Source of the DNA: Candidatus Dormiibacterota bacterium
GTDB lineage: Bacteria > Chloroflexota > Dormibacteria > Dormibacterales > Dormibacteraceae
Direction of reading: 5' to 3'
Length of the DNA stretch: 64,000 nt
Assembly: GCA_036844615.1 (NCBI GenBank)
Contig: DAIUFK010000001.1
Coordinates: forward strand, 9,694-73,693
Under the pieces are notes generated by a model, which saw only the letters and a program-made list of their open reading frames with translations, was not told the origin of the DNA and ran no database searches. Of the stretch, positions 1,499 through 14,872 are shown piece after piece. Every line of letters begins with the position of its first letter. Positions within the stretch are counted from its first letter, which is position 1. A program made the translations under genes and the position numbers.

Positions 1499-1726
1499 TC
1501 AGTGGCTCTTCTCCGCAACGGTGACCAGCAGGTCCAAGGTGTTGCGCACTGCGACGAGGAGCAGCACAAGGACTACCCCCACCAGCACGGCGAGCGCGGT
1601 TCCGGTGGAGCCCAAATAGAACAGAACGCCGATGACTCCGAGGGCAAGGCATCTGAGCATGCTCAACCCGAATCGCGAGATCAACAGCCGCAGACTCAGG
1701 GTTCGCGCGCGCCTTGCGCGACTCAT
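1499..1726 (-). CDS. small hypothetical membrane protein (two predicted TM helices)
   Basis: 75-aa ORF with a basic N-terminus followed by two hydrophobic stretches. No family recognised. Confidence 0.35.
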   Translation of the reverse strand: MSRARRARTLSLRLLISRFGLSMLRCLALGVIGVLFYLGSTGTALAVLVGVVLVLLLVAVRNTLDLLVTVAEKSH

Positions 1727-1778
1727 GTCGCGCTGATCCTAAAGCGGGCGATCCACCGAGAAGGGGTGCATCTGGACC

Positions 1779-2687
1779 CTAGGCCACCGTTGCACCGGCT
1801 GCGCGTTGCTGCAACCACTGCAGGATAGGTTCCGACAGCCTCACCGCGACATAGGTTGCGAACGCGAGAGAGGTTATGAAGAAGCTCACCGGGTGGGGCG
1901 AGAAGAAAGCGATGCTCAATCCGAGCCAGGTGAAGGCGAGGGCCAGCAGGACGCCGATGAGGATTGCGGTCGGCGGCCGGCTCGTGAACCTGACTGCGAT
2001 GGCGGCGGGGGTGACGATCAGGGCGAAGATCAACAGCACTCCCACCACCTGCACAGCCTCTGTCACCGCCACCGCCAGGATCGCCATGAAACCGATCGAC
2101 AGCGCGGTCACCGGAACTCCCTTGGCGCTGGCCAGCTCCTCGTCGACCGACGAGAACAATAGAGGTCGGTAGACGGCGACGAGGCCGACGACTGTCACGA
2201 TGCCCGCGACCAACGTGACTGCCACGTCGCCGGAGCTGATGCCGAGGATCTGGCCGAACAGGAGCGCATAGGCCTCGGTGGCGTACCCGCGATAAAGGGA
2301 GATGAACAGGACTCCGAGCCCAAGCGTCCAGGCGAGCACTATGCCAATCGTCACGTCGCGGCCGCGCACGCGATTGCCGAGAGCTCCGATCACGACCCCG
2401 CTCCCGAGCGTGAAGGCAAGGAGGCCGACTATCGGGTTGAGCGAAAGGACCACCGCTCCCGTCGCGCCGGCGAAGCCGATATGCGAGAGAGCATGCGCGG
2501 CGAAGGCGGATCCCCTCAGCACCACGAAGTAGCCGATGGCGCCGGCCACTATGGCGACGATGGTGCCGGCCTCGAAGGCGTGAACCATGAAGTCGTAGTG
2601 CAAGAGCATGGCCAGGTCTTCCAGCGGGTTCCAGCTTGGCTGCGATGAGGTGTTCGAGATGGTCAGCTGGACTGCGACGTCAACCAT
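1779..2687 (-). CDS. znuB: metal (Zn/Mn) ABC transporter permease, ABC-3/ZnuB family
   Basis: 302-aa polytopic membrane protein. It overlaps the upstream ATPase gene by 8 nt and sits in an operon with a TroA-type binding protein opposite a Fur-family gene. Confidence 0.8.
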   Translation of the reverse strand: MVDVAVQLTISNTSSQPSWNPLEDLAMLLHYDFMVHAFEAGTIVAIVAGAIGYFVVLRGSAFAAHALSHIGFAGATGAVVLSLNPIVGLLAFTLGSGVVIGALGNRVRGRDVTIGIVLAWTLGLGVLFISLYRGYATEAYALLFGQILGISSGDVAVTLVAGIVTVVGLVAVYRPLLFSSVDEELASAKGVPVTALSIGFMAILAVAVTEAVQVVGVLLIFALIVTPAAIAVRFTSRPPTAILIGVLLALAFTWLGLSIAFFSPHPVSFFITSLAFATYVAVRLSEPILQWLQQRAAGATVA

Positions 2688-10089: not shown

Positions 10090-10815
10090 ATGGGAAGGCT
10101 GTACAGCGAGCTCGCCGAGTGGTGGCCCACGTTCTCGGTCCCCGAGGAGTACCGCGAGGAAGCCGCCTTCTTCACGCGCGCCTTGAACGAGTCATGCGAT
10201 TCACGACCCCGCACGGTGCTCGAGCTGGGGTCGGGCGGAGGCAACAACGCGTCCCACCTCAAGGCGCACTTTGCGATGACGCTGGTGGACATGTCCCCTC
10301 AGATGCTCGCAGTCAGCCGCGCGCTGAATCCCGAGTGCGAGCACCTCGAAGGCGACATCCGGGCCGTCCGCCTCGGCCGGACCTTCGACGCGGTCTTCGT
10401 GCACGACGCGATCTGCCACATGACCACCGAGCTCGATCTGCGCGCCGTCATGGCGACGGCTTTCGAGCACTGCTGCGCTGGCGGCGCTGCCCTGTTCGCG
10501 CCCGATTTCGTGCGCGAGACCTTTGTCGAGAACACGGATCACGGAGGCAACGACACCGAACGCGGCAGCGTGCGCTTCTTGCAGTGGACCACCGACCCCG
10601 AACCGGCCGACACCGCATATTTCGTCGACTTCGCGATCCTCATTCGGGACCGGGAGGGCAACATGCGTGTGGAGCACGACCGTCACACGTACGGCCTGTT
10701 CTCACGCGCGGTGTGGCGACGCCTGCTGCGCGACGTAGGCTTCGAGCTCAACATGAAGCGCGCCTTGATCGACGGCTTCGGACGCGACGTCTTCGTGGGC
10801 AGGCGAGGACGTTAG
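10090..10815 (+). CDS. class I SAM-dependent methyltransferase
   Basis: Motif I VLELGSGGGNN followed by an acidic loop LVDMSPQML. 241 aa. Confidence 0.85.
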   Translation: MGRLYSELAEWWPTFSVPEEYREEAAFFTRALNESCDSRPRTVLELGSGGGNNASHLKAHFAMTLVDMSPQMLAVSRALNPECEHLEGDIRAVRLGRTFDAVFVHDAICHMTTELDLRAVMATAFEHCCAGGAALFAPDFVRETFVENTDHGGNDTERGSVRFLQWTTDPEPADTAYFVDFAILIRDREGNMRVEHDRHTYGLFSRAVWRRLLRDVGFELNMKRALIDGFGRDVFVGRRGR

Positions 10816-10863
10816 GTCCCGGAGCTCAAAGGGCCCTACCGTGCTCTGCTGGTCGCGCTCAGG

Positions 10864-11226
10864 CTAGGGGTTCGAGCTCGAGTCCGTCTCGTTTGCATCC
10901 TTCGCGCTGTTCTTATTGCCGTTCGCGGATGCGGCAGCGCTCACAGCCTTGCCGTGCTTGTTTGCGACGGCGCTCACGCACCTGCCGATCCCATGCTGCC
11001 CGGCGGCCAGAGCAGCCTTGCACTTAGCGACTGCTGCTGTCACGTCGGCGCCATGCCCTTTCGCCTGCCCCTGATTGTCAGGCGCCGAATTGGATGGAGT
11101 CTGCTGAGTCGTGGTCGACGCGAGGTGGATCGTGGTCGCGGCCAAGCCCCCGCCCGCGACGAGCCCGACCAGGCCCGCTACCAGGCCCAAGGCCAATTTG
11201 GATTGAAGCGCTGACATGAAGTGCAT
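10864..11226 (-). CDS. small secreted/anchored protein with a C-x13-C HGIG module; paralog of the ectodomain of the 11973..12422 product
   Basis: Start taken at MHFMSALQSKLALGLVAGLVGLVAGGG (signal or anchor). The core GADVTAAVAKCKAALAAGQHGIGRCVSAVANKHG matches the neighbouring anti-sigma candidate. Confidence 0.5.
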   Translation of the reverse strand: MHFMSALQSKLALGLVAGLVGLVAGGGLAATTIHLASTTTQQTPSNSAPDNQGQAKGHGADVTAAVAKCKAALAAGQHGIGRCVSAVANKHGKAVSAAASANGNKNSAKDANETDSSSNP

Positions 11227-11368
11227 CGTGGGTCCCTCCTGGGTTTGGTTGATCCAACGGCCGTCTCTGGATACATCAACTCGCGACCGGCCTCGACTAA
11301 CGACGGGACGGGCAACTTTGATCTGAGGGCAGGAAGCGTGCTCCGCGGGCGTCATACGGTAGTTACCT

Positions 11369-11965
11369 ATGTCTAATCAGGACTACAAGCCCGGATCGGT
11401 CGAGGATTTCGACCGCCTCTATCAATCGAGCTTTAACAGAATCCTCTACACGATCTACGGCATCCTGGGCGACCGGGCCGCGGCCGAGGACTGCACGCAG
11501 GACGCCTTCGTCAGAGCGTTCAAGGCCTGGAAGACCTGGAAACCGGATTCTCCTGCCGAAGCCTGGCTTCACAGGATCGCAATCAACGTCGCCTACAGCC
11601 ATCTGCGCCAAGGGCGCATCCGCGAGGTCGGTGAGCTGGTGCGAAGGCTCGGCCGCCCCGGGCCTGGCCAGGATCCTGCCAAGGTGGCTGAAAGCGGCGA
11701 CCTTTTTCGCGCCCTTCGCAAGCTTCCACCCGACCAGGCGGCCGCGATCGTCCTCCGTCACCACCACGGCTACACGAACCGGGAGATCGCGATCGCACTG
11801 GGCGCGCCCGAGAGCACTATCGCCTCGCGTCTCGCGAAAGCCAAGGAGCGCCTGCGCGCCGAGCTGAGGTGGGCCGAACCTCAAGAACAAGACACGGCCG
11901 CAGCCGCGCCCTTCGTTAGTCCGGCCAACAAGCGAGTTGTACTTAGCGATGGCCCAATCAAGTGA
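11369..11965 (+). CDS. ECF-type RNA polymerase sigma-70 family factor
   Basis: Region 2 (DCTQDAFVRAFKAWKTW...AWLHRIAINVAYSHLR) and region 4 (LPPDQAAAIVLRHHHGYTNREIAIALGAPESTIASRLAKAKERL). Confidence 0.9.
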   Translation: MSNQDYKPGSVEDFDRLYQSSFNRILYTIYGILGDRAAAEDCTQDAFVRAFKAWKTWKPDSPAEAWLHRIAINVAYSHLRQGRIREVGELVRRLGRPGPGQDPAKVAESGDLFRALRKLPPDQAAAIVLRHHHGYTNREIAIALGAPESTIASRLAKAKERLRAELRWAEPQEQDTAAAAPFVSPANKRVVLSDGPIK

Positions 11966-11972
11966 GCACGGG

Positions 11973-12422
11973 ATGAATGACGAATTCGACCGCCGGCTGA
12001 AAGATGAGCTCGGCAAAGGCTACGTCCCATTCAGCGCGACCTCAATACCGGCCGGCGCGCCATATCGTTCATCGGTGGGACGCGCCCGTCCATCGCTGGG
12101 ACGCAGCGCCCGGACTGCGATCGTGGTCGCAGCCATCGCGAGCGGCCTCATGGGGACCACCGCGCTTGCTGCCACTGCCGTCACGGGTAGCGCGAACCCT
12201 CAGGCCTGGGGCCAGTACGTCAGCGATGCGGTGAACACTTGCAAGAGAGAGCTCGGAGCCGGCGAGCACGGAATCGGGGGGTGCGTTCGCGCGATTGCAA
12301 ACCAGAAGGGAGTGCAAGAGCGCGACAAGCATTCAAATGGAAACGGGGCAAGCCACGCTCAACCGAGCGCGAAGGGGCGACCCAGCGGCGTGCCGAGCGG
12401 GCCGCCAAGCAGCAGACCGTAG
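11973..12422 (+). CDS. putative single-pass anti-sigma factor with a C-x13-C HGIG ectodomain
   Basis: It starts 8 nt after the ECF sigma gene. It has a ~47-aa cytoplasmic N-terminus, a TM helix TAIVVAAIASGLMGTTALAATAV, then GQYVSDAVNTCKRELGAGEHGIGGCVRAIANQKG. No ZAS motif is present. Confidence 0.5.
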   Translation: MNDEFDRRLKDELGKGYVPFSATSIPAGAPYRSSVGRARPSLGRSARTAIVVAAIASGLMGTTALAATAVTGSANPQAWGQYVSDAVNTCKRELGAGEHGIGGCVRAIANQKGVQERDKHSNGNGASHAQPSAKGRPSGVPSGPPSSRP

Positions 12423-12447
12423 CCGAGAGTCAATATCTCGGAGTCAG

Positions 12448-13809
12448 ATGGTCGACCCCGAGGAGGTTTACCGGCGCACGACCCCCGCCTCGCGGGCGCT
12501 GCACGAGCGCGCTGTCAAGGCGATGCCCGGCGGCACCACAAGAACCACCACCTACTTCCATCCCTACCCCATCTACATCGATCGCGGCGAGGGGTGCAGG
12601 ATCTGGGACGCCGACGGCGCCGAGCGCATCGACATGCTCGGCAACTACACAGCGATGATCCTCGGGCACGCGCATCCGAAGGTGGTGGAGGCGATCAACA
12701 GGCAGGCCGCCCGCGGCACTGCCTTCGCGGCGGCCAACCCGATCGAGGTGGAGCTCGCGACTCTCTTATGTGAGCGAGTCCCGAGCCTGGACCTCGTGCG
12801 TTTCTGCAACTCGGGGACCGAGGCCACCATGTTTGCGATGCGGTTGGCTCGGGCCTTCACTGGACGGCCGAACATTGCCCGGATCGAGGGCGGCTACCAC
12901 GGCACCCACGACTACGCCGAGGTCAGCACGCATCCAGCGCCGGCTGAGGCAGGCCCGCCCGAACGCCCTAATGCCACGCCCGACTCGATAGGCACGCCTC
13001 AGTGGGCATTGGAAGGCAGCGTTGTCCTCCCGTTCAACAACCCAGACGCTGCCGAGCGGATTCTTCGCGAGGAAGGTCACCGCGACAGCGTGGCGGCGGT
13101 GATCCTCGAGCCGATCATCGGAGCCGGTGGCGTGATCGCGGCGACGAACGAGTTCATACAGCGACTCAGGTCGGTGACCAGCGAGCTCGGAATTCTTCTC
13201 ATCTTTGACGAGGTGATCTCGATGCGTGTCGCGCCAGGCGGCGCTCAGCAGCTCTACGGCGTCACCCCTGACCTCACGACGATGGGGAAGATCATCGGCG
13301 GCGGCCTGCCGGTGGCCGCCTTTGGCGGGCGCGCCGATGTGATGGAGCTGATGGACCCGCGACGCCGGCCCAATCTCCCGCAGGGCGGGACCTACAACGG
13401 CAACCCACTCGGTATGGCAGCCGGCGTTGCGGCAATGAAAGAGCTGACGCCAGACGTCTACGAGGACCTGAATCGAAAGGGCGCAAGGGTCAAGGACCAG
13501 CTGACCGAGGTGTTCGCCTCGCACGGCATGCCGGCCCAGGTGAATTGCGCAGGCTCCCTGCTCGCGATTCACTTCACCGACGTGCCCGTCACCGACTACA
13601 GGAGCAAGGCAACTTCGAACGATGCCATCGCCCATGACTTCTTCCTCGCCCTGGTCAACCATGGCGTCCTGATGGCGCCACGCGCCATGGGCGCCCTCTC
13701 GACGCCGATGGCCGAGCCCGACATCCAGGAGTTCGTGGACGCGGTGGACGCAGTCATCACAGAGCAGCTGCCGAGATGGCGCGCGAACGGCTCGGTGATG
13801 GATCGTTAA
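12448..13809 (+). CDS. class III PLP-dependent aminotransferase (glutamate-1-semialdehyde aminomutase-like)
   Basis: GNYTAMILGHAHP, FDEVISMR and the PLP-Lys context TTMGKIIGGGLPVAAFGG. Start taken at MVDPEEVYRR, since the track start at 12295 overlaps the previous gene. Confidence 0.9.
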   Translation: MVDPEEVYRRTTPASRALHERAVKAMPGGTTRTTTYFHPYPIYIDRGEGCRIWDADGAERIDMLGNYTAMILGHAHPKVVEAINRQAARGTAFAAANPIEVELATLLCERVPSLDLVRFCNSGTEATMFAMRLARAFTGRPNIARIEGGYHGTHDYAEVSTHPAPAEAGPPERPNATPDSIGTPQWALEGSVVLPFNNPDAAERILREEGHRDSVAAVILEPIIGAGGVIAATNEFIQRLRSVTSELGILLIFDEVISMRVAPGGAQQLYGVTPDLTTMGKIIGGGLPVAAFGGRADVMELMDPRRRPNLPQGGTYNGNPLGMAAGVAAMKELTPDVYEDLNRKGARVKDQLTEVFASHGMPAQVNCAGSLLAIHFTDVPVTDYRSKATSNDAIAHDFFLALVNHGVLMAPRAMGALSTPMAEPDIQEFVDAVDAVITEQLPRWRANGSVMDR

Positions 13810-13939: not shown

Positions 13940-14872
13940 GTGAGGGCTTTTAAGCAGCAGGGTTCCGATGCTCCTGACGAGGAGCCGCAGGACGAACACG
14001 CCCGGATGGATGCCGTGAGGTCATGGCTGGCCAACGGCAACCACATCTTTGGCGTCGATCCTCGCCGCCGGCACGGGCATCACGGCCACGCGCGGCAGCT
14101 TTTGGCCGAGGATCTCCGGGCAGACAAGGCGACGTCAGGCGAATGGCAGGCGCTGGCCTCCGCGCTGGATAGGCACACGGTCCGGGGCGGCATGGCCGAG
14201 CTGAGCGCCGAGGAGCGCCAGGTGATCACTCTCGCCTACCTCGAAGGCAGGACCAACCGCGAGATCGCGGCGATGCTTGGTGTATCGGTAAGCACTGTCA
14301 GGCGACGCCTTTGGGTCGCCCTCAAGCGGCTCGAGGCTTACATCGGCCGCACCCGGAGCTGGGTGTCGGCAGTCCTCGTGCTCGGCGCCGGCTATGTGGT
14401 CGAGCGAACCTCGAAGCTTGCTCACTCTCTTGACGCCGATTGGACTCACAAAGTTGCTTCGACAGTGGCGGTTGGTGCAGTGGCCGTGGCGGCCATCGGC
14501 CTGACTGCGATGAGCCCCGACTCAACCAGGCCCCATGCGACGACCGCGCCGGCCGCTGCGGCGCTCGTTTCCAGGGCGGGTGTCGGCGACCGGGTGCTTC
14601 CAGCGGACATGTCGAACGTCCGACCGGTCCCGGTCCAGGTAGCGAGGGTAGTAATCCCTGACATTTCGCACAGCGCCATCCCGACGGCCGAAGTGATCCC
14701 CCTCGTGCACATAACCCAAAGCAAGCCCGCCGATGGCGATGGTTCTCTCCCAGGCCAAGGCTGCCTCGGCAACCCGACGAGCGCGCCACCGCCCGTTCCT
14801 GTCGGGTCGCACGCCAACCATCCGACTGGGCCTCCGGTGACTCACCCGACAGCAGGGGGCTGCCGGGCCTAA
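13940..14872 (+). CDS. membrane-anchored protein with only a sigma-70 region 4 HTH domain
   Basis: LSAEERQVITLAYLEGRTNREIAAMLGVSVSTVRRRLWVALKRLE is a sigma region 4 / LuxR-type HTH; no region 2 lies upstream. Hydrophobic segments WVSAVLVLGAGYVV and VASTVAVGAVAVAAIGLTAM follow, then a Pro-rich tail. Confidence 0.6.
   Translation: MRAFKQQGSDAPDEEPQDEHARMDAVRSWLANGNHIFGVDPRRRHGHHGHARQLLAEDLRADKATSGEWQALASALDRHTVRGGMAELSAEERQVITLAYLEGRTNREIAAMLGVSVSTVRRRLWVALKRLEAYIGRTRSWVSAVLVLGAGYVVERTSKLAHSLDADWTHKVASTVAVGAVAVAAIGLTAMSPDSTRPHATTAPAAAALVSRAGVGDRVLPADMSNVRPVPVQVARVVIPDISHSAIPTAEVIPLVHITQSKPADGDGSLPGQGCLGNPTSAPPPVPVGSHANHPTGPPVTHPTAGGCRA

Follow-up and report, generated by a model that had tools for sequence, protein, structure and literature searches.

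In Escherichia coli, the extracytoplasmic function (ECF) sigma factor RpoE works with the single-pass anti-sigma factor RseA and a co-expressed extracytoplasmic partner, RseB, which binds the outer domain of RseA and modulates its proteolysis. RseA combines an anti-sigma domain of class I with a large domain in the periplasm, and RseB, with its soluble lipoprotein-carrier-like fold, is unrelated to it. A second system, CnrH/CnrY/CnrX of Cupriavidus metallidurans, includes CnrX, a second membrane-anchored helical protein that is presumed to act on the outer part of CnrY. This system likewise has three components, and its small single-pass anti-sigma factor combines a cytoplasmic part of less than about 55 aa with a very short outer part (PMC7406223). 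Class I anti-sigma domains (ASDI) average 101 ± 33 aa, and in the class II protein CnrY the cytoplasmic peptide is shorter than 50 aa and wraps around the sigma factor, touching sigma4 and sigma2 with its two helices (PMC7406223). Here we describe a locus of similar layout in a stretch of 64,000 nucleotides (the window) from a member of the Dormibacteria, whose metagenome-assembled genome (MAG) has 2.44 Mb and is 87% complete. Reading of the open reading frames (ORFs) gives three small genes between positions 10700 and 12600: one for an ECF sigma factor, one directly behind it for a membrane protein, and one encoded divergently for a free anchored protein that shares a two-cysteine module with the membrane protein. 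We propose that the three form an ECF sigma switch specific to Dormibacteria, in which hairpins formed by the two module copies would pair outside the membrane. We regard this proposal as about evenly balanced between right and wrong.

All three ORFs were present as the preliminary description of this DNA had given them. The sigma gene (11369..11965, plus strand), whose start is fixed by an in-frame TAG at 11360, encodes 198 aa with regions 2 and 4 and a C-terminal tail of about 30 aa. Pfam detects Sigma70_r2 (residues 17–82, E 7e-16) and Sigma70_r4_2 (residues 112–162, E 1e-13) and nothing else. As regions 2 and 4 are the sole domains, the protein is a sigma factor of the ECF (group 4) type, of about 200 aa and without region 1.1 or 3; it also passes the cut-off of the sigma70-ECF model TIGR02937 (83.4 bits against 42.9). 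The best specific NCBIfam model is TIGR02983, the SigE family, with 106.6 bits (E 1e-30), and because this lies under the cut-off of 141.55 the window sigma factor is not a member of that family. Actinobacterial SigE-family sigma factors are its best-scoring relatives, and the nearest solved structure is that of the ECF sigma factor SigE (E 3e-17); they differ from it by the curated cut-off, which it does not reach, and by the partner protein.

The gene of the putative single-pass anti-sigma factor follows on the same strand (11949..12422; 157 aa, or 149 aa when counted from 11973). The protein appears to consist of a short N-terminal amphipathic helix (DEFDRRLKDEL), an Arg-rich cytoplasmic linker, a transmembrane (TM) segment, the extracytoplasmic module and a low-complexity Pro/Gly/Ser tail. 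The free module protein (10864..11226, minus strand; 120 aa) has an N-terminal signal-anchor at about residues 11–33, a Ser/Thr/Gln-rich linker, the hairpin module at residues 59–106 and a low-complexity tail, and its gene carries a strong ribosome-binding site, GGAGGG, 7 nt 5′ of the ATG. Low-complexity tails containing NGN were found in both flanking proteins, as described before. Each of the two has a hydrophobic stretch of 20–23 aa with Arg/Lys ahead of it; the AlphaFold2 (AF2) model of the anti-sigma factor has low confidence in its TM segment. By the positive-inside rule, the predicted topology would place the module outside the cytoplasm.

The similarity between the two flanking proteins, first counted by eye, was reproduced exactly: BLASTP aligns 34 residues without gaps, 19 of them identical and 23 positive (E 4e-10), which far exceeds what chance would give. 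The extent of 34 aa did not hold, however, since the module is longer and begins with TGSxNPxxWG in anti-sigma-type copies. In the free copy, the core of the module lies at 10951..11052 on the minus strand (GADVTAAVAKCKAALAAGQHGIGRCVSAVANKHG); BLASTP and alignments A1, A2 and A5 assign it to an HG type that lacks TGSxNP. In the anti-sigma factor, column conservation and the AF2 model place the module at 12180..12320 on the plus strand (VTGSANPQAWGQYVSDAVNTCKRELGAGEHGIGGCVRAIANQKGVQE; residues 70–116 of the 149-aa form), with Cys90 and Cys104 flanking a 7-residue loop. The genome copies, when aligned, give the consensus TGSxNPxxWG..V...V..CK..L..G.HGIG.CVS..A..HG. Both cysteines, V83, L94, G100, G102 and V105 are invariant in A2, an unbiased alignment of 34 sequences, and K91, H99 and I101 are conserved in at least 90%. 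The window proteins display the C-x13-C spacing, the Lys following the first Cys, the HGIG preceding the second Cys and the hydrophobic heptad pattern. The module had been described as belonging to no named family, and this was borne out: Pfam and NCBIfam at E ≤ 1 return nothing for either flanking protein, searches of PDB sequences are without match, and a PDB profile search with the anti-sigma-type alignment A3 yields no significant relative.

The source genome encodes four module proteins. Two are those of the window, one on contig 41 lies immediately 3′ of a second ECF sigma gene, and one on contig 52 is a stand-alone, anchored protein. A word-indexed search recovered 87 metagenomic orthologues of the anti-sigma factor (43–100% identity), all of them unnamed or 'hypothetical' and none with a Pfam domain, and HMMER, run exhaustively with the 120-aa query against 1.84 billion proteins that each represent a cluster, gave only 31 clusters at E ≤ 1e-3. 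With a degenerate DNA pattern for CK..L....HGIG.CV, 96 loci were found in 185,579 species-representative genomes. As these loci were selected by the motif itself and come from related genomes, they speak for consistency and do not count as independent events. By their titles, nearly all are Candidatus Dormibacterota or older, mislabelled 'Chloroflexi bacterium CF_' soil MAGs, with a few odd SMAG labels; we judge these SMAG labels unreliable because the sigma factor at one such locus, filed under Limnocylindria, shares 83% identity with that of the window. Of 41 close relatives searched genome-wide, 27 have the module; in a phylum-level sample it was detected in 14 of 34 genomes of class Dormibacteria, with only two weak hits among about 267 genomes outside the class. 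One of these hits, in G161, is an acetolactate synthase and was discarded as spurious; the other, in G066, is a secreted protein with the partial motif GCKEF...SHGIGHCVS that may be remotely related to the family. In these searches, the module family was thus confined to Dormibacteria, a class without cultured members. As a separate observation, two proteins of the representative library, P0094 and P0102, have unusual arrangements: one continues from a full module into a second, partial one (SCKRELAPGQHGIGRCVS ... DCKQNLPAGHHGIGRCVR), and the other fuses sigma region 2 straight to the module. Both could be genuine fusions or could have arisen from misassembly or frameshifts.

We then extracted the module ORFs from the 96 loci, located ECF sigma genes within 1.3 kb by phmmer, and counted the evaluable cases. 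Copies that bear the helix motif [DE]F[DE]RxLxxEL before the TM segment have a sigma gene directly upstream in 62 of 62 cases; L022 and L035, two further matches to the regular expression, are anchor-only proteins and were left out of this number. A module that was unconserved or unlinked to ECF genes had been named beforehand as an outcome that would refute the preliminary interpretation, and the opposite was found. The sigma genes adjoining module proteins are all similar to that of the window (42–83% identity), and their similarity tracks that of the anti-sigma N-termini (Spearman 0.58, from data that are not independent). Single-linkage clustering of the sigma factors at 62% identity merged all of them, leaving no one-to-one table of clades and helix types. 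The sigma genes give the impression of a single ECF group whose paralogues arose by duplication together with their partners.

Is the downstream protein the anti-sigma factor? As stated in the preliminary description, it has neither a ZAS motif nor a known anti-sigma domain, and neither Pfam nor NCBIfam returns a hit at E ≤ 1. The pattern H-x3-C-x2-C is absent; the cytoplasmic part contains no Cys, and the only two cysteines of the protein are both in the outer module. The protein is therefore not a class I/ZAS anti-sigma factor. Its cytoplasmic part, of about 55 aa, comprises the amphipathic helix DFDRxLxxEL and, some 20 residues later, a conserved A.Y motif, and would resemble the short class II (CnrY-like) proteins in size only. 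Judging from the layout, the protein is probably the anti-sigma factor of the adjoining sigma factor and would bind it through the N-terminal helix. Alternatively, it might be a co-transcribed target or envelope protein, with the sigma factor controlled otherwise, for example by the product of 13940-14872. Such an arrangement would agree with the very short cytoplasmic region, with the absence of a detectable anti-sigma domain, and with the fact that this product, a protein with sigma region 4 and a TM segment, is a conserved neighbour of the unit. However, the gene sits directly behind the sigma gene in all 62 evaluable cases, the N-terminal helix and Arg-rich stretch, placed in the cytoplasm ahead of a single TM segment, give the layout that is canonical for an ECF anti-sigma factor, the helix co-diversifies with the sigma factor, and class II anti-sigma factors are equally short (PMC7406223). 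We consider this alternative extremely unlikely.

The anti-sigma gene had been taken to start at 11973, 8 nt past the sigma stop codon. A start at 11949 is more likely and would make the two genes overlap by 17 nt. The in-frame ATG at 11949, which falls within the last codons of the sigma gene (GAT GGC CCA ...), is kept in every orthologue examined (MAQSSEHGM-, MGQSSEQAM-, MGRSGDYAM-, MARSSEYGM-). Moreover, three more distant orthologues (P0080, P0083 and P0085) have no second Met ahead of the conserved FD motif, and P0001, a metagenomic gene call identical to the window anti-sigma factor, has 157 aa. For these three reasons we place the start most likely at 11949. Start/stop overlaps of this kind usually indicate translational coupling, and the sigma and anti-sigma genes are probably coupled in this way. 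Between the window and its orthologues, differences fall on third codon positions at a ratio of about 3:1 in both small genes, which are therefore under coding selection. The free-copy orthologues are 55–79% identical, again with changes mainly at third codon positions.

To describe the module in three dimensions, we used AF2. The anti-sigma factor was modelled from a 141-sequence alignment (149-aa numbering), with a mean predicted local distance difference test (pLDDT) of 61. The model has an N-terminal helix at residues 2–16 (block-mean pLDDT 79 and 69 across 1–20) and, in the module, a helix-loop-helix of residues 76–93 and 101–121 (block-mean pLDDT 80–86 across 81–110). An equivalent hairpin is predicted for the free copy, with helices at 59–72 and 80–106 (block-mean pLDDT 66–76 across 61–100), and the corresponding cysteines are Cys69 and Cys83. 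Cys90 is three residues short of the end of the first helix and Cys104 three residues into the second, and the conserved hydrophobic positions follow a heptad pattern (V83, V87, C90, L94 / I101, C104, V105, F108). With this pattern and their equal distance from the loop, the cysteines would face each other in the core of an antiparallel hairpin, and they would most likely form a structural disulfide staple. Foldseek against PDB gave nothing significant; its top three hits (E ~9) include Tim9/Tim10 and a vicilin leader, which are disulfide-stapled helical hairpins. Like the predicted module, small Tim proteins, CHCH domains and plant alpha-hairpinins pair two antiparallel helices whose cysteines lie opposite each other close to the turn, but they carry two disulfides (twin CX3C or CX9C) instead of the single C-x13-C pair, are eukaryotic and soluble, and have no sequence relation to the module.

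Two distant orthologous loci bear on the role of the cysteines. L080 (~1640-1960, plus strand) and L122 (1945-2277, minus strand) encode a divergent free copy without CK...HGIG.C, in which one Cys stands before helix 1 and one after helix 2 (HPC-NHGFYVSQAAH.HKGGAYVSAIAQSDLGKNGSC), and the adjoining anti-sigma factor retains the canonical module. Since the Cys pair has moved and the hairpin has been retained, a structural role is favoured over a fixed Cys2His metal site. A small metal site made of Cys90, His99 and Cys104, with or without His112, and acting as a CnrYXH-like metal-responsive switch, would nevertheless account for the (near-)invariance of the C, H, C residues and for His112 in 56% of sequences, and the three-component layout is like that of CnrH/CnrY/CnrX (PMC7406223). 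But His99 is Arg in several members (TRGIG in L009; also P0090 and P0111), position 112 is Lys in the window anti-sigma factor and its orthologues, and the L080/L122 free copies lack the C/H/C set altogether. In addition, the genes adjoining the unit include no conserved metal transporter or resistance gene, the conserved neighbour encoding a TadG-like surface protein, and the A3 profile finds no metal sensor in PDB, CnrX included. A metal sensor is therefore highly unlikely in our view.

A further explanation treats the hairpin as a reversible thiol/disulfide redox sensor, in which the redox state of the cysteines outside the membrane would alter the conformation or stability of the anti-sigma factor, and the free copy would serve as a redox relay or buffer that exchanges thiols and disulfides with it. 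The Cys pair is invariant in the 34 sequences of A2, and it flanks the loop in both AF2 models. DsbB and VKOR were not found in the MAG, so that outer thiols might stay reduced and reactive, and the genome has UPWC DsbA-like thiol/selenol redox genes. On the other hand, the core (a/d) positions of the cysteines fit a buried structural bond better, the cysteines at the hairpin ends in L080/L122 could still staple the hairpin but would not provide a reactive site shared by all copies, and the many paralogous anti-sigma factors that bear the module in one genome would be odd for a single signal. We hold a redox sensor to be unlikely. As to the redox genes themselves, two FrnE-like genes of the DSBA family in the source genome (G000), at C37:18531-19100 (minus strand) and C10:37892-38458 (plus strand), have an in-frame TGA at the first Cys of the CxxC motif (FSDYV*PWCY). 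Both are probable selenocysteine UPWC oxidoreductases by their sequence, likely split by gene callers.

The idea of a co-regulated partner gained support from the free copies, which recur beside sigma/anti-sigma pairs in three arrangements. Helix-less copies of the HG type, which like the window free copy have a signal anchor, a Ser/Thr/Pro/Gln linker and HG for WG, are sigma-linked in 6 of 7 cases. For the FG type the count is 2 of 4, and for the WG type, similar to the anti-sigma factors minus the cytoplasmic helix, 2 of 9. Free copies divergent from the sigma gene (L046, L068, L089 and L107) are all of the HG type. Immediately upstream of the sigma gene, in the same operon, are free copies in L052 and L078 (HG) and in L043 and L116 (FG); at these four loci the protein behind the sigma factor also has the module, in degenerate form in L043, L052 and L078. 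In L039, a WG-type copy stands in tandem behind the anti-sigma gene.

The gene beyond the free copy is conserved as well. Six orthologues in metagenome assemblies (eight loci, L118-L125) all have the order TadG-like <- free copy <-|-> sigma -> anti-sigma, and the genes downstream of this core vary. The TadG-like protein of the orthologous loci (PF13400) is Cys-rich and has about 720 aa, and the same core is present in the GTDB loci L068, L089 and L080. No TadG-like gene was found beside the free copy in the window. The methyltransferase gene at 10090-10815 corresponds to the gene just past the TadG-like gene in L068 and L089, and synteny is kept on both sides, so that the 48 nucleotides left between methyltransferase and free copy (10816-10863) mark the former position of the tadG-like gene. 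By this synteny, the gene was cleanly lost in the lineage of the source genome. L045 shows another loss: the free copy/TadG-like pair is kept, and the locus lacks the genes for sigma factor, anti-sigma factor and aminotransferase.

These arrangements also bear on the possibility that the module is a generic structural, dimerisation or protease-recognition element. Input would then come through regulated proteolysis of the low-complexity tail or through another protein, and the free copies would have no connection with the switch, being envelope proteins that reuse the fold, for instance as accessories of the TadG-like protein. Consistent with this, the module is on all paralogous sigma/anti-sigma pairs, the tails behind it are long and variable, 7 of 9 evaluable anchor-only WG-type copies lie away from any sigma gene, and the free copy shares a transcription unit with TadG-like genes, the pair being kept in L045 without an adjacent sigma gene. 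However, the linkage of the HG-type free copies to sigma genes, in two gene orders, and the occurrence of other helix-less types in sigma operons (L039, L043 and L116) are hard to explain without functional coupling, and the source genome kept its free copy intact after the TadG-like loss. We think a module without sensor function rather unlikely.

Alignment of 12 orthologous intergenic regions between free copy and sigma gene revealed four conserved blocks. The candidate, presumably autoregulated promoter of the sigma operon (11329..11357, plus strand) consists of GCAGG (11329-11333), a 16-nt spacer and CGTCATAC (11350-11357). CGTCATAC occurs in 12 of 12 regions and GCAGG in all of them (as CAAGG in three), with the spacing fixed at 16 nt; the element is also present in L039. 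The distance from the end of CGTCATAC to the start codon is 9–15 nt among the orthologues and 11 nt in the window, and the leader would therefore be very short. When both strands were read by eye for promoters of the form AAC-N16-17-CGT, a semi-conserved alternative on the plus strand, GAAC-N19-GTC, was considered; the strictly conserved GCAGG-N16-CGTCATAC was preferred, although the alternative may yet be the true element. On the minus strand, the candidate free-copy promoter (11297..11326) reads TCAGA-N16-CGTCGTTAG, with the −10-like block at 11297-11305. CGTCGTTAG is found in 10 of 12 regions and CATCGTTAG in the other two, and in 6 of 12 regions GCAAG or GCAAT stands at the −35-like position; GCAAG-N16-CGTCGTTAG is the usual form among the orthologues. 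Because L045 keeps GCAAG-N16-CGTCGTTAC before the free copy although its sigma gene is gone, this block belongs to the free-copy gene. A further conserved block, GATACATCAACyCGCGA (11270..11285, no strand assigned), would form part of the 5′ leader once the free-copy gene is transcribed, and in the orthologues it is followed by a GGGCC...GGCCC hairpin.

A look for an ECF-type promoter with −35 AAC and −10 CGT had been advised for both genes. A conserved CGTC-type block stands at the −10-like position on both strands, and the −35-like block is GCA(A/G)G, not AAC. Both genes may share a GCA(A/G)G-N16-CGTC promoter, which is ECF-like in form but without the usual AAC and would fit sigma-dependent expression of both transcription units; we take this promoter assignment as suggestive. 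A scan of 10700-12600 for sigma-70-like promoters found none, and Rfam on the same interval gave a chance snoRNA hit only (E 0.98). Other sigma paralogue groups have different conserved upstream motifs of their own. One such group (L030, L033, L037, L057, L062, L085 and others), in which the anti-sigma N-terminus is MSDLERELEQELHRVLDP, carries a highly conserved element, ACATATGTTCGGGGAGGTTAGACGAACATTCGTTTGCAGTCAATAG, about 60–110 nt upstream of the sigma start, and this element holds the inverted repeat ATGTTCG/CGAACAT.

Taken as a switch, the locus could work as follows. The sigma factor would be held by the single-pass anti-sigma factor through its short cytoplasmic helix, and the outer hairpin of the latter, of about 45 aa, would be stapled by a disulfide and expose a hydrophobic face. 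Outside the membrane, the free paralogous hairpin would pair with it as a hetero four-helix bundle; we propose this pairing because of the exposed hydrophobic face and because the paralogous hairpin appears to be repeatedly co-expressed. Pairing would stabilise or destabilise the anti-sigma factor, as RseB does with RseA or CnrX with CnrY, and with a partner that is itself sigma-dependent a feedback loop would close. Since the free copy is usually co-transcribed with the large Cys-rich TadG-like gene in relatives, the circuit would probably report on, or control, a surface structure related to the Tad pilus. A more specific version, in which the anti-sigma hairpin and its free paralogue are a homotypic sensor/partner pair that gates the sigma factor, perhaps by thiol-disulfide exchange, and monitors assembly of a TadG-like pilus or surface protein, strikes us as distinctly doubtful.

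Several observations weigh against the proposed switch. Choosing 96 related loci by their motif inflates both the invariance of the module and the linkage counts, and the WG-type anchor-only copies are mainly unlinked to sigma genes (2 of 9 linked). Searches with Pfam, NCBIfam and a PDB profile found no similarity of the cytoplasmic part to any anti-sigma domain. In the AF2 model only one cytoplasmic helix is confident, residues 31–71, TM segment included, have pLDDT <50, and the proximity of the two cysteines derives from the helix geometry of the model. The loss of CK...HGIG.C in the L080/L122 free copies means that a mechanism needing this motif in both partners is not universal. In the 87%-complete MAG, DsbB, VKOR and Thioredoxin_4 were not found, and the only DSBA-family genes detected are without evident signal peptide, which makes the capacity for extracytoplasmic disulfides uncertain. 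The −35 element of the candidate free-copy promoter is degenerate in the window (TCAGA), and the leader hairpin is missing there along with about 10 nt. Finally, a genome-wide scan for GCA[AG]G-N16-CGTC[AG]T[AT] found the sigma promoter and one other site, and a looser pattern 23 scattered sites; neither amounts to a regulon.

Two sets of neighbouring genes are recorded here as side observations. In the source genome, two near-identical tad-type operons remain (C52:847-5769 and C92:1686-6611; L126 and L127), and in both of them a Cys-rich TadG-like protein of about 780 aa is encoded behind two TadE-like genes. The gene at 13940-14872 (plus strand), a conserved neighbour of the sigma/anti-sigma unit, encodes a membrane-tethered protein with sigma region 4 only (Pfam r4/r4_2, no r2). 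Its counterparts are at 3-386 in L089, 4980-5888 in L118, 4964-5878 in L121 and 2872-3783 in L045. It stands directly after the anti-sigma gene in L089 and L012, after the aminotransferase gene in the window, L118 and L121, and divergent to the free-copy/TadG operon in L045. This protein may belong to the same circuit.

Compared with the described systems, the locus shares with Cnr the three components, among them a small, putatively single-pass anti-sigma factor with short cytoplasmic and outer parts. It differs from Cnr in that its third component is a paralogue of the anti-sigma factor's own outer domain, in that it has neither a conserved set of metal ligands nor a metal-efflux operon, the partner gene being TadG-like, and in that its anti-sigma alignment, used as a profile against PDB, shows no sequence similarity to CnrY or CnrX. 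With RpoE/RseA/RseB it has in common an ECF sigma factor, a probable single-pass anti-sigma factor and a presumably co-expressed, extracytoplasmic partner; homology of the window proteins to RseA or RseB was not found with Pfam, NCBIfam or the PDB profile. The type of switch is thus conventional and not new. For its outer module, for so small a cytoplasmic part and for a third component that is paralogous to the outer domain, we found neither annotation nor published description. Nor did we find published work that links Dormibacterota/Dormibacteraeota to ECF systems.

Pairs of ECF sigma and anti-sigma factors make up the third major mode of signal transduction in bacteria, and the input domains of many groups are obscure. 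Here, a domain of about 45 aa without a Pfam or NCBIfam family marks a whole lineage-specific ECF group, in a class that is abundant in soils and uncultured, and whose regulation is essentially unstudied. All parts are small: the sigma factor has 198 aa, the putative anti-sigma factor 157 aa and the partner 120 aa, and the bidirectional control region spans 142 bp. A laboratory host would therefore allow direct tests of the system, which could also find use as an orthogonal switch. If the homotypic sensor/partner pair is true, it would be a design undescribed for ECF systems, because the third component copies the sensor domain itself.

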